Source: Escherichia coli
GTDB taxonomy: Bacteria; Pseudomonadota; Gammaproteobacteria; Enterobacterales; Enterobacteriaceae
Assembly (NCBI RefSeq): GCF_011045215.1
Contig: NZ_CP049201.1
Reading direction: 5' to 3' (one strand)
DNA length: 64,000 nucleotides
Part shown: one piece after another, positions 30,001 through 33,000 of the stretch
Layout of the letters: each line of letters starts with the position of its first letter
Position numbering within the stretch: position 1 is the stretch's first letter
Program-made: the position numbers

Positions 30001-33000
30001 ACCAACATCAACGCAGGGGACAAGGATAATAACCGGAGATAATTATTCATCACAGTATCAGGATTTGTTTGAAGAGAGGATCAATGAGCTTATTGATGAA
30101 AGTCTGGCGATGAGTGGTGAACGACGTTGCCTTCACTTTTCTCCTCAGGCTGCCAGAATCTGGACGGATTATTACAATGATGTGGAATCGAAGCTGGGGG
30201 GATTGGGGCCTTTAAGACATTGCCGGGAATATGCTGCTAAAAATGCAGAGTATATGGCAAGACTGGCAGGACTTATTTACCATTCGAGCGGTGAAGAGGG
30301 GGAGATTTCCCCTTACACTGCAGAAATGGCGAGAGAATTAGCAATATGGTACGGTAATGAGTATGTGCGGTTGTCTAATCCGTTAACTTTTGACAACTCC
30401 GCCCTGACCGTACCTGTGCGACTCATTCCAGAGGAGCTTGAACTTTTCAACTGGATAAAAAGCTATTGCATTGAGAAGGGGATCCTCTGTATGAAAAAAA
30501 ATGACATTTTACAGCGTGGCCCGAACCGTTTCCGGAAAAAGGATAAAATCAACTGGTTACTGGATTTACTGTATGAACAAAACAGAGTTGTACCGGTTAT
30601 TGAGGGAAAAACGTTGTGTGTCGCACCTAACTTTGACCTCTGAACGACTTAATCGTTGAGTACATATAGTCTCCTCTGCTACTTGCGGAGGAGACTAATG
30701 TCTTTACCATGTCAGCGTTGTATTAGAAAACTCTGGTACAGGTCAGTCAGTAAATATAACTGGTGTAACCACTATTTACTATTGGATAGAGTGTTGCTCA
30801 GGATATTGTCGGCTTTAGTCTGAGGTGAGGTGGGGCCTTCATTGTTTTCGTGTTCAATAAATAATTTAGGTTAATTAGTATTATTAGTGGGAGTTATGTG
30901 ATCTGTTATGTTGTCTCTTTTATCGTAATGTCACTCCTCTCTATGCTAAGTATTCTGTATGTGTGTAATACATATATCTCCATACACTACGCAGTGAAGC
31001 ATATGGGGGGAAGCTGTATGGTGAATTATGTGGTGTAATGTTGGGAACATAAATCTGTTATGTTATGTTGTCTTGTACGCACTTAACACTGGTTACGTAC
31101 CGGAACACTATTAGAGTATGTTATGGCTCCGTTACAGTTTATAAGCATAGGTAAATATAATATTTTCTGTATGAAATAATCTTCTTATTGTGAGGTTAAA
31201 TATCTGTAGGCTCTCTCTGCAGAGTCTCTGTTTTTACTTAATGGTACGGCAATATTAATAGCGATGTTGTCTGTGGCTACCCGGTACTGACTTTTGTGAA
31301 GATCAGATTATATCCTGTAAGTAATTGAATGGTGCTTTCTTAAACTCAATTATATGAGGTGTGTTTTTTATTGTAATTCGTTCTGGTCCTCAGTTTAAGA
31401 AAGTCTTACTGTATTCTGAATCATTACCCTATTACTGTAATGAGGTAATACGAAACAGTTTTATCAGGTTGTCTGTGCTGCTGGTTACCTCTTTTATTAA
31501 TGCCGCGGTACGGCGTTTCTGTACTCTCAGTATTTATGTAATTCCACTTTCCTGTCAGTTTTATAAAGTAAGGACTATAAAATGTATAATGCCAATCCCA
31601 ATTACGAAATGAATTTCGCGATTCTGAAAGATGTGAATGAACACATGGAAGGTCTGTTTCAACGTTTTTCTAAACTGTTACCTTTCAGAATTGATTTTGC
31701 TTACAGGAAAGACACGCCCAGTTTTGGTCTTTCCTGTAAGCACAGTATGTGTATGGAAATGTACCGCTTACTTAGCGAAACCCAGACGATGTTGGCGGGA
31801 TATTACTGGGTAATGGAATATACACCAGACAAAGGGCTTCATATTCATTTTATCGGCTATCTGGATGGACAACGTCACAAGAACTCTTATCAGATATCCA
31901 GGCAACTGGGAGATATCTGGAGGCGGATCACGGAAGGGGAGGGTTATTTTCACCTGTGCCGGGCTAAAGATAAATACCCGGTGCGTATCGATCATGTAAT
32001 TCACTATAGTGATAAATCTGCGGTAGACGACTTACGTTACGCCCTTAGCTATCTGGCGAAACAGGATCAGAAAGAACACGGTATTATTCTGGGGCGTAGC
32101 AGGCTTCCCGAAAAAAGTAACCGCGGCCGACCACGACATAACTGAATTATGGGGGCTTATGTCCGAACTATCGTAAGTTATCGCGTGGATTTGCCTTCAC
32201 ACGAATTTCAGTCGTGGTGCCGCCGGGAGACAGGTACAAGTGATAACGCATATGGTTTATAAATCTGACAGCGATGAACTAGCAGTACTGCGGGCAGAAA
32301 ATACCCGGCTGGTCTCATTACTTGAAGCTCATGGGATTGAATGGCGACGTAAACCGCAGAGCCCTGTGCAGTGCGTTTTCGTATTATCCACGGATGAGAA
32401 AGTTGCGTTATTTTGTCGACTGTTTCGCGGGCGTGATGATGTATGGGCCCTTCGATGGGAAAGCAAAACCAGCGGAAAGGGTATTCGTCTACCTGGCTAA
32501 CGAATGGCTGTTGGGAATATGCAGTAAGCCCTGGATAAAATGTGGGGACTGCGCTCACCGTCAGTTGATCCCTGTATCTGATCTCATCATCTACCAGAGG
32601 TAGTGTACAATATGCCGATATCGAACTGATACTTAATTAAAATATCTAGAGTGTGATATATCTCTGAGAACTATCAATACGAATATTAAAAATACTTCCA
32701 GAATAACAGCAATACGGGTGGATCTCCATTACCCTCCTGTGATTGACAACGGGGATACCATTACCTGTTTTCCTAACCTGACCCCCGGAGAAATATCTCG
32801 TTTCCGTAACTCGCTGAATGCGAAAATTAATGCAGATCAACACCGTAAAAAACAACAAGGCAAACGCACCTACGCAACGTCGGTTTGTATTATCTGGGCG
32901 AAAGAATATACGCAGTCCTTTAAATGTCATTATCACGTCTGCCTGTTGTTTAACAAAGACGCCTATTACCACCTGGGAGACTATGAGCGCTCTGACACCC

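Follow-up and report, generated by a model that had tools for sequence, protein, structure and literature searches.

The long non-coding gap between the yfjI-like and rep-like genes, near the head of an Escherichia coli genomic island, is the junction of two units, the 3' flank of yfjI and the upstream region of the rep-like gene, and it holds a short element whose conservation extends well outside Escherichia and which is closely tied to the gene downstream. The window analysed here is the whole stretch of 64,000 nucleotides from contig NZ_CP049201.1 (assembly GCF_011045215.1), in which the gap occupies positions 30644-31581 (938 bp), from the stop of the YfjI-family gene (30643) to the start of the next gene (31582). 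The conserved element, hereafter the core, is ~35 bp in length (30863-30896, + strand) and reads AATTTAGGTTAATTAGTATTATTAGTGGGAGTTA (AATTTAGGTTAATTAGTATTAT...GGGAGTTA); its conservation supports the suggestion in the initial annotation of this DNA that the gap could contain a regulatory site. We tentatively read the gap from ~30842 onwards as the cis-control region of the rep-like gene, which would comprise a promoter overlapped by a protein-binding site and, beyond it, a long leader expanded by repeats. The probability we attach to this account is somewhat short of even, placing it first, with a replication origin ranked second and rather unlikely.

The core emerges from comparisons at increasing evolutionary distance. 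A block at 30842-30913 (+) is common to all E. coli and E. albertii arrangements, whatever lies upstream, with blastn aligning window positions 30842-30902 to 4001-4061 of locus L068, and 30862-30913 to 2412-2463 of locus L019. The part common to differently arranged E. coli islands extends over ~60-70 nt, with 95% identity within E. coli, and is therefore the size of a promoter. The core itself includes the near-palindrome AATTTA-GG-TTAATT, the outer parts of which consist of A and T only, and the -10-like hexamers TAGTAT (30876-30881) and TATTAT (30879-30884), with a weak -35-like TTCAAT at 30853-30858 leaving a 17-nt spacer to the -10-like hexamer. When the gap was compared with the corresponding regions of Citrobacter, Erwinia and Yersinia, the sole block shared in blastn was window 30862-30894, AATTAAGGTTA[A/G]TTA[G/A]TATTAT, in relatives with Rep-like proteins that are 44-58% identical. 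In the contigs from these three genera the rep-like gene again follows 545-625 bp of non-coding, AT-rich DNA, and both the upstream gene and its orientation vary. Across genera ~22-30 bp of the core are near-invariant, and no other part of the gap is conserved outside Escherichia. No description of the element was found in the searchable literature.

The coupling between core and gene is essentially complete in both directions. A protein-first scan of 100,044 species representatives identified 49 loci with a rep-like gene, of which ~38 carried the core on the + strand upstream of it, as detected with an iterated nhmmer profile that recovers the element across protein clades of 33-47% identity. 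In each locus with the core upstream, it lies on the same strand as the rep-like gene. Its distance to the ATG is typically 90-360 nt in these protein-first loci, reaching 590-1040 nt in Escherichia and one Budvicia locus, while matches outside the upstream window were limited to one weak hit on the - strand and one on the + strand (L067, at -1652). Where two rep-like paralogues stand in tandem (L066), each has its own copy of the core. Searching motif-first, with a 22-mer, returned at least 80 stretches from metagenomes and two more from viral contigs, 82 in all; 67 of these listed matches have a same-strand rep-like gene downstream and 14 end too soon to assess, such that 67 of the 68 assessable matches fit the pattern, the exception (L128) being a truncated copy. 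Within the window the core is single-copy, compared with 0.11 occurrences expected, and no second match was found at up to three mismatches, the region ahead of the second YagK-like gene included. In the K-12 yfjJ locus examined, the exact 16-nt core pattern was not present, and a candidate for a proximal second copy at ~31436, chosen by eye, was not detected by the profile.

The core travels with the rep-like gene and not with its neighbours: arrangements differ in which gene lies upstream, in how it is oriented and in the alpA subtype. The DUF3987 gene, of which yfjI is the representative in the window, is divergent in L013 and L068, and absent from L011, L015 and most of L021-L067; the core stays with the rep-like gene throughout. 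In a second E. coli arrangement (L068, NZ_CP051158.1, 1-4783, compared with window 25341-31581), the alpA-DUF3987 pair is inverted relative to the rep-like gene, with a gene for a 607-aa hypothetical protein directly upstream of a 1208-bp gap, and with one breakpoint ~20 nt upstream of the core. Segment 30702-30841 of the window is missing upstream of the core in that arrangement.

The rep-like gene (31582-32145, +) encodes 187 aa and is annotated by the Prokaryotic Genome Annotation Pipeline (PGAP) as an 'inovirus-type Gp2 / YagK-YfjJ domain protein'. Alignment of 20-24 homologues revealed the invariant residues D38, W76-x-x-E79, H87-x-H89 and Y157-x-x-K160, which by their sequence are the HUH plus catalytic-tyrosine pattern of rolling-circle Rep proteins; the gene adjacent to the core thus encodes an HUH metal site and a catalytic tyrosine, as the gene beside a hairpin-type HUH origin does. 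The fold resembles that of Rep nucleases, and a sequence search of the PDB with the family profile returned nothing significant. These proteins also share an invariant C-terminal RGRPR tail that is AT-hook-like. The gene is related to the family behind the initial label of 'yagK-like', with true YfjJ and YagK sharing the invariant D, W-x-x-E, H, W and K columns, and the HxH and Y being nearly invariant. However, the protein scores 17.5 bits against YagK_YfjJ_C (PF11726), below the Pfam gathering cut-off of 25.8, and is also sub-threshold for REP_ORF2-G2P, while the true YfjJ/YagK paralogues do not have the RGRPR tail; it is better regarded as a member of a separate HUH Rep-like subfamily, with homologues in Salmonella, Erwinia, Citrobacter, Yersinia and other genera. 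A second, bona fide YagK_YfjJ_C paralogue (169.6 bits, E=7.5e-50) follows at 32718-33221 (+), and is not preceded by a core.

We infer promoter activity, the identity of any protein binding the core, and any autoregulation from sequence features. The core would act as the promoter of the rep-like gene, with TAGTAT or TATTAT as the -10 element, a weak -35 element, and a near-palindromic protein-binding site filling the spacer between them; the transcript would then cross the long leader to reach a Shine-Dalgarno sequence (AAGGA, 31570-31574) and the ATG at 31582. The most likely binder would be the Rep-like protein itself, acting through its AT-hook-like tail. Several features are consistent with this arrangement. 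A TAnTnT hexamer (TAGTAT, TAATAT, TATAAT or TAGTGT) is similarly placed in all 34 of the unique contexts kept by a screen for that pattern, and is the hexamer used by the best sigma-70 promoter of the upstream region, as scored with a position weight matrix, in ~10 of 38 loci. The -35-like hexamers ATGACA, ATGATA, TTGATG and TTCAAT sit 16-19 nt upstream of the -10-like hexamer, hence the conserved near-palindrome falls in the spacer. Single-stranded, the core has almost no structure (-0.6 kcal/mol over 71 nt), which suits an easily melted promoter. Finally, the subfamily with the core motif invariably has RGRPR, whereas YfjJ/YagK do not carry the tail, and the sequence upstream of K-12 yfjJ does not contain the exact core.

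A number of observations weigh against this interpretation. Firstly, a consensus promoter scan found no + strand promoter in the gap, and the -35-like signal at the right spacing is merely 1.2 standard deviations above other offsets, which is not significant. Secondly, ~22 contiguous conserved bases, including the spacer, exceed the needs of RNA polymerase, and the Rep-like protein proposed as their binder is itself divergent. Thirdly, a 720-nt 5' leader packed with unstable repeats is unusual, and a weak hairpin followed by a T-run at 31203-31236 could stop the rep-like transcript. Fourthly, the setting, in which a helicase gene, an AT-rich gap and an HUH Rep gene are joined in some relatives by an AEP primase gene, favours a reading of the core as an origin, albeit one compatible with a promoter.

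Under that reading the HUH Rep-like protein would recognise or nick the DNA at the core, and the adjacent, lineage-specific direct repeats would serve as its iterons; together with the YfjI helicase, and the AEP primase in some islands, this would allow the excised island to undergo replication of the rolling-circle type or to be mobilised as a single strand. We consider this unlikely overall, but it is the foremost of the alternatives. Its appeal begins with the rep-like gene, which has the HUH and Y-x-x-K signature and a fold similar to that of Rep nucleases, and with the position of the gap, in an AT-rich setting directly 3' of a helicase-type gene. The origins of the Staphylococcus aureus pathogenicity islands and phage-inducible chromosomal islands (SaPI/PICI), and crr of P4, are likewise located directly 3' of a helicase gene. 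In EDL933 and ETEC6335 an AEP primase gene comes directly after the rep-like gene. The invariant core is followed immediately 3' by clade-specific short direct repeats; in a sister clade these form tandem arrays built from 12-13-nt half-units, and within E. coli they change in copy number. Conservation of the core also exceeds that of the protein, as is usual for nick sites. Moreover, TAGTATTAT/TAATATTAT in the core is one base off the circovirus/geminivirus nonamer, which we take to be TAGTATTAC/TAATATTAC, although this is a resemblance only. The termini of Sulfolobus islandicus rod-shaped virus (SIRV), which presumably read AATTTAGGAATTTAGG..., resemble AATTTAGG in the core, and we regard this as an unverified lead.

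However, origins of this kind that present their nick site in a loop, such as those of pMV158, pT181, Ff and the circular Rep-encoding single-stranded DNA (CRESS) viruses, have a structure for which there is no counterpart here. Folds of 71 nt of single-stranded DNA around the core in six clades gave -0.6 to -5.3 kcal/mol (z = -1.0 to +0.3), with no hairpin or GC-rich inverted repeat at the core in any of them. The repeats are not evident in short-leader clades, and differ between islands with Rep-like proteins that are ~94% identical. No enterobacterial phage in the phage collection carries the rep-like gene, plasmids other than E. coli records containing the same island segment have only remote matches (22-37% identity), and the sole small plasmid to carry a distant homologue encodes a Rep of its own; hence carriage by phages or small plasmids, considered as proof of Rep function, yielded no informative case. 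The strict placement of the core upstream of the gene, on the same strand, is also not needed by an origin. A specific version, in which the HUH Rep with its AT-hook, the DUF3987 helicase, AlpA and the integrase form an as yet unrecognised, hairpin-less module for rolling-circle-type replication or mobilisation at the head of a large family of enterobacterial genomic and pathogenicity islands, with the core and repeats as its origin, serving for nicking or loading, we hold to be slightly less probable still. The rep promoters of geminiviruses, CRESS viruses and many rolling-circle plasmids overlap their origins, and therefore the promoter and origin interpretations are compatible. In the K-12 yfjI-yfjJ spacer (L010, ~4466-4490), CTTGATA, which we take to be the nick heptamer of pC194/phiX174-type origins, is followed by GGTAATATAT; with a chance expectation of ~2% in 152 bp, this is a lead only.

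These interpretations can be set against known systems. Like the double-strand origins and rep promoters of HUH-Rep replicons, including those of the pMV158 type, the common region of geminiviruses and CRESS viruses, and the intergenic region of Ff upstream of gene II, the gap is AT-rich non-coding DNA directly upstream of a co-oriented HUH Rep-type gene, and combines a family-wide short sequence with lineage-specific short direct repeats; for Ff and the geminiviruses these are established features. Unlike them, the core has no stem-loop, many clades lack the repeats or have none that can be recognised, and the element is chromosomal, in large islands, and 560-1160 nt from its gene in Escherichia, with nicking and replication as candidate activities only. 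With the SaPI/PICI and P4 modules the island shares the order of integrase, alpA, DUF3987 helicase-like gene and AT-rich, repeat-bearing non-coding region. The core likewise lies 3' of the helicase gene in the window, but it does not move with that gene, being tied instead to the rep-like gene, and being kept where the helicase gene is missing or lies in the opposite orientation; nor were capsid-hijacking or satellite genes seen in the island. The P4 iteron, presumably TGTTCACC, is not present in the gap. The closest island heads are those of K-12 CP4-57 (yfjI-yfjJ) and CP4-6 (yagK), which are of the same type (intA, alpA, yfjI, YagK/YfjJ-family gene); the K-12 yfjI-yfjJ spacer is, however, 152 bp long, the K-12 locus examined has no exact 16-nt core, and K-12 YfjJ is only ~21% identical and without the RGRPR tail.

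The unusual length that the initial annotation had remarked upon is borne out by this comparison, with 938 bp in the window and only 152 bp in the homologous CP4-57 yfjI-yfjJ spacer, hence the length of the gap is specific to this type of module. The earlier bounds (30650-31581) were essentially right, as was the description of the DNA as AT-rich, the gap having a GC content of 0.36 relative to 0.42-0.47 in the flanking genes and ~0.40 in this part of the island. Its + strand is also strongly skewed, with T exceeding A and G exceeding C. The gap is real non-coding DNA. The statement that no open reading frame (ORF) exceeds 60 codons holds for ATG starts, for which the maximum is 41 codons, but not when GTG and TTG starts are allowed, as an 83-codon GTG ORF (31361-31612) lies mostly inside the gap and extends into the next gene; in relatives its frame is broken by indels of 1-3 nt. 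The longest stop-free stretch is 74 codons, and shuffles of the same composition average 74 +/- 18, therefore the ORF content of the gap is as expected for non-coding DNA of such composition. Stop-free stretches were at most 86 codons in all nine relatives examined, the four longest gap ORFs had no match in Pfam, and no conserved reading frame, codon-position bias or homology was apparent. A hidden or decayed gene was rejected on these grounds. PGAP places no annotations inside the gap in any of the nine relatives' records inspected. The corresponding gap lies at 1,063,549-1,064,368 of NZ_CP008957.1 in EDL933 and at 1,142,655-1,143,624 of NZ_CP051263.1 in CFT073.

Sequence similar to the gap is common, being detected by megablast at 80-99% identity in 1586 of 5426 complete E. 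coli genomes (~29%), with 1215 of the 1586 matching at least 80% of the query. As it occurs at a median of one place per genome, and a maximum of three, the gap is a single-copy part of the island, and a dispersed repeat or miniature inverted-repeat transposable element is ruled out.

Conservation is distributed unevenly along the gap. In an alignment of 10 E. coli sequences, mean identity is 97% over 30644-30700, which includes the hairpin at 30662-30701, then 93.9% over 30700-30840, where the third codon positions of yfjI are at 93.7%; it is 95% over the promoter-sized conserved segment (30840-30912), falls to 79% in the hypervariable stretch at 30912-31075, of which 24% of columns contain gaps, and is 88-92% over 31075-31581, where the third positions of the right-hand gene are at 88.5%. 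Outside the core, identity therefore follows the synonymous rate of the adjacent gene, whichever gene that is, and the gap is a composite of a yfjI 3' flank and a rep-like upstream region. Much of the 938 bp is neutral, repeat-inflated DNA. It could be argued that the whole is a mostly functionless AT-rich spacer, decayed or expanded, kept only by linkage and probably coated by H-NS as other horizontally acquired AT-rich DNA is, with the core being simply a promoter that has no dedicated binder. This would fit the synonymous-rate identity outside the core, the indels of the hypervariable middle, the range of lengths among close relatives (560-1160 nt), the tolerance of EDL933 for a 157-bp deletion, and the lack of ORF remnants, Pfam matches or an RNA family. 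Yet it leaves unexplained the near-invariance across genera of ~22-30 bp that include non-promoter positions, the recurrence of expansions at the same spot with different units in separate clades, and the strict + strand bias of the over-represented words, such that we regard it as improbable.

The repeats in question lie directly after the core, in a T/G-rich hypervariable zone (30893-31075, +) containing the short direct repeats TGTGATC, TGTTATG and GTTGTCT, as well as a longer direct repeat pair at 30896-30916 and 31053-31073. TGTTATG and GTTGTCT each occur four times, compared with 0.3 expected, and all over-represented words of the gap are found strictly on the + strand. The zone is unstable. 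In EDL933 precisely the 157 bp separating two copies of CTGTTATGTTGTCT are missing, and PCN061 carries one additional TGTTATGTTGTC unit. Tandem Repeats Finder identified no tandem arrays in the window itself, where the repeats are dispersed, but a sister clade with a rep-like protein that is ~64% identical has true tandem arrays directly after the core, made up of 3-4 copies of a 25-26-nt unit (TGTAAATGAWCC/TGTAATTMTACC), the copy number of which varies between metagenome contigs. At these loci (L104, 7416-7523; L127, 5250-5364; L151 and L107) the repeats are either 25-26-nt units made of two 12-13-nt TGTAAA/TGTAAT half-units, or runs of the 8-nt CTGTAATT. The gap appears unusual because the leader, which is 90-360 nt in most genera, has reached 560-1160 nt in Escherichia through unstable short direct repeats, and because this repeat-expanded leader is joined to the 3' flank of yfjI.

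The proximal leader (31127-31581, +) is common to E. albertii, from 31127, and to the second E. coli arrangement, from 31194, with blastn identities of 85-88% to L019 and L068. Within it, a consensus scan identified a weak terminator-like hairpin at 31203-31236 (+), followed by CTGTTTTT. It folds at just -8.5 kcal/mol (z = -0.9), and keeps its position while the stem differs by lineage (CTGTAGG/CTGCAG or GTGAGG/CCTCAC), with two-sided changes at three pairs. RNAalifold gave no convincing covariation across the proximal leader (-1.47 kcal/mol), and the short-leader relatives, with their C-rich and G-poor leaders, mostly yielded no terminator-like site. Leaders in other genera (L011, 4960-5003; L017, 205-241; L013, 4950-5003; L015, 4960-5003) end, as judged by eye, in a hairpin of the CTTCCT...AGGAAG type that would sequester the Shine-Dalgarno sequence, and by composition they are strikingly C-rich and G-poor (G 0.08-0.14).

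The weak hairpin of the window, together with the spacer element upstream of it and a precedent in P. aeruginosa, raises the idea of Q-like antitermination dependent on AlpA, with a regulator element between the -35 and -10, and a leader of ~340 nt that would end at 31203-31236 unless AlpA modifies RNA polymerase. In P. aeruginosa, AlpA has its binding element between the -35 and -10, with a weak terminator downstream, and combines a helix-turn-helix (HTH) at residues 128-142 with an N-terminal segment that forms a ring in the RNA exit channel (PMC9371919). The resemblance of the present locus to the PalpB-ABE-tB cassette of that species (in which ABE is the AlpA-binding element), as to the PR'-QBE-tR' cassette of lambda (where QBE is the Q-binding element), extends to conserved bases in the putative promoter spacer, a weak terminator-like hairpin in the leader that holds its position while its stem sequence changes, and an alpA-family gene that accompanies the rep-like gene in 48 of 53 loci. 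Unlike in those cassettes, AlpA here is a minimal HTH protein of 68-100 aa, too short for the P. aeruginosa layout, and the terminator is weak and missing in most relatives. Furthermore, the same core is found in islands with alpA types that are only ~30% identical, making AlpA an unlikely reader of the element. AlpA was rejected as the core binder on this last ground, and we view antitermination as very unlikely.

Of the accounts considered, a trans-acting small RNA, or a cis-antisense RNA from a promoter-like site on the - strand, is the least probable, and we give it hardly any weight. The initial annotation had proposed a small RNA, for which the strand-asymmetric composition and the possible delimitation of a transcript by the promoter-like core and the hairpin and T-run ~340 nt later could be cited, but the body of such a transcript would be the least conserved and most indel-ridden part of the gap. 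Promoter prediction on both strands gave no consensus promoter on the + strand and a 10/12 match on the - strand at 31377-31349; the latter is not conserved, its spacer shifting from 17 to 19 nt and its TATAAT becoming TAGAAT in about half of the lineages. Terminator prediction returned a strong but U-poor stem-loop at 30662-30701 and the weak hairpin with T-run at 31203-31236. A scan with Rfam 15 had no match in the gap even at E<=1, and a scan of the whole window at the gathering threshold likewise placed nothing in the gap; over 28000-34000 there were just two chance-level matches to microRNA models, with E values of 0.15 and 0.88. Covariation across relatives was negligible, the RNAalifold terms being only -1.5 kcal/mol for the proximal leader and -0.03 kcal/mol for the conserved 5' block. 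Finally, none of the Hfq-bound EcOnc RNAs listed for SpLE1 of enterohaemorrhagic E. coli (EHEC) Sakai (1397649, 1418246 and 1422407) falls within the equivalent gap, estimated at ~1,377.4-1,378.2 kb of NC_002695.2, and Esr41, the known small RNA of this island type, is located elsewhere, between z1181 and z1182.

The left ~200 nt of the gap belong to yfjI rather than to the rep-like gene. A stem-loop at 30662-30701 (+) begins 19 nt past the yfjI stop, with a 13-bp core stem (30667-30679/30685-30697), and as RNA folds at -26.1 kcal/mol (z = -7.0), a value matched by none of 200 shuffles. Its variants (C-G to U-G, U-G to C-G and G-C to G-U) preserve pairing through G-U, which applies to the + strand RNA only. 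The tail that follows, AAUGUCUUUACC, is U-poor, without any run of four or more U, and hence this is not a canonical intrinsic terminator; it is probably a 3'-end stabiliser, or a terminator hairpin without a proper U-tract, and may still act as a stabiliser or weak terminator of the yfjI transcript. Beyond it the yfjI-linked 3' flank (30702-30841, +) drifts at about the synonymous rate, and the agreement of its identity with that of yfjI third positions indicates it is effectively neutral. A 41-codon ORF (30698-30823, +; MSLPCQRCIRKLWYRSVSKYNWCNHYLLLDRVLLRILSALV) has an ideal GGAGG Shine-Dalgarno sequence, which falls within the 3' arm of this hairpin, and 46 of 48 relatives keep the ORF intact. 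It was rejected as coding, since its polymorphisms are spread 10:9:8 over the codon positions, with 21 non-synonymous to six synonymous changes, and include nonsense and stop-loss alleles.

The yfjI-like gene upstream of the gap (29192-30643, +) matches DUF3987 in Pfam (E=5e-84) and PHROG 2373, 'DNA helicase' (E=8e-63), and 5'-3' helicase activity has been demonstrated for a DUF3987 protein from the replication module of a mobile element (PMC11724360). It is preceded by an alpA-type gene for an HTH regulator or excisionase (28271-28567, +; Pfam Phage_AlpA, E=5e-19; PHROG 'excisionase and transcriptional regulator'), the equivalent of which PGAP annotates in relatives as a 'helix-turn-helix transcriptional regulator'. 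Between the two, an ORF at 28794-28991 (+) duplicates the N-terminal part of YfjI; PGAP annotates its equivalent as a 'DUF3987 domain-containing protein' fragment in all relatives, hence the module consistently contains a partial duplication of the 5' part of yfjI. The gene order in nine annotated records is integrase, a gene for a 605-aa hypothetical protein, an IS1 remnant, the alpA-type HTH gene, the DUF3987 fragment, yfjI, the gap and the Gp2/YagK-YfjJ gene, past which the cargo diverges fully, including enterotoxin, a group II intron, AEP primase, KAP NTPase, McrBC and colibactin. In other genera, at least 40 of 49 loci (L021-L067; for example L024, 3001-3892, and L011, 5001-5895) have the core, the rep-like gene and then a small alpA gene 100-130 nt further on, this downstream alpA being 76-88% conserved compared with 33-47% for the Rep-like protein. 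The island type in the window has lost the downstream alpA, and a different subtype, ~30% identical, sits upstream with yfjI.

In ~29% of complete E. coli genomes this module heads islands whose cargo includes tellurite resistance/Iha, enterotoxin, colibactin-linked and defence functions, yet annotation of its genes goes no further than YfjI family and inovirus-type Gp2, and none of the records examined has a feature in the 0.8-1.2-kb spacer. A cis element of ~35 bp coupled to an HUH Rep-like gene across Enterobacterales offers a handle on how the module is switched, and on replication or mobilisation after excision. If the core is just a promoter and operator, the outcome is an ordinary yet useful annotation, with the length of the gap explained as repeat expansion. 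If it is instead an origin, supposedly immobile islands, such as OI-43/48/SpLE1 of EHEC, the serX island of CFT073 and those linked to pks, could amplify or transfer after excision.

Several further features of the window were recorded. A remnant of a 'TOTE conflict system' AEP primase lies at 32240-32600 (+), this gene being intact (~787 aa) in ETEC6335 (L007, 7687-10047). Related islands occupy serX or thrW, though ARAGORN found no tRNA gene in the whole window. An imperfect 41-nt hairpin, ATAGCAGC...GCTGCTAT (29136-29176, +), stands 16 nt upstream of the yfjI start, and surfaced only as a chance-level match to a microRNA model in Rfam. Just upstream of the island integrase (23951-25153) are an RtT element (23598-23733, -) and two CRISPR-DR4 direct repeats (23407-23434 and 23467-23494, +), which are separated by one interval of spacer length and form a two-repeat mini-array.

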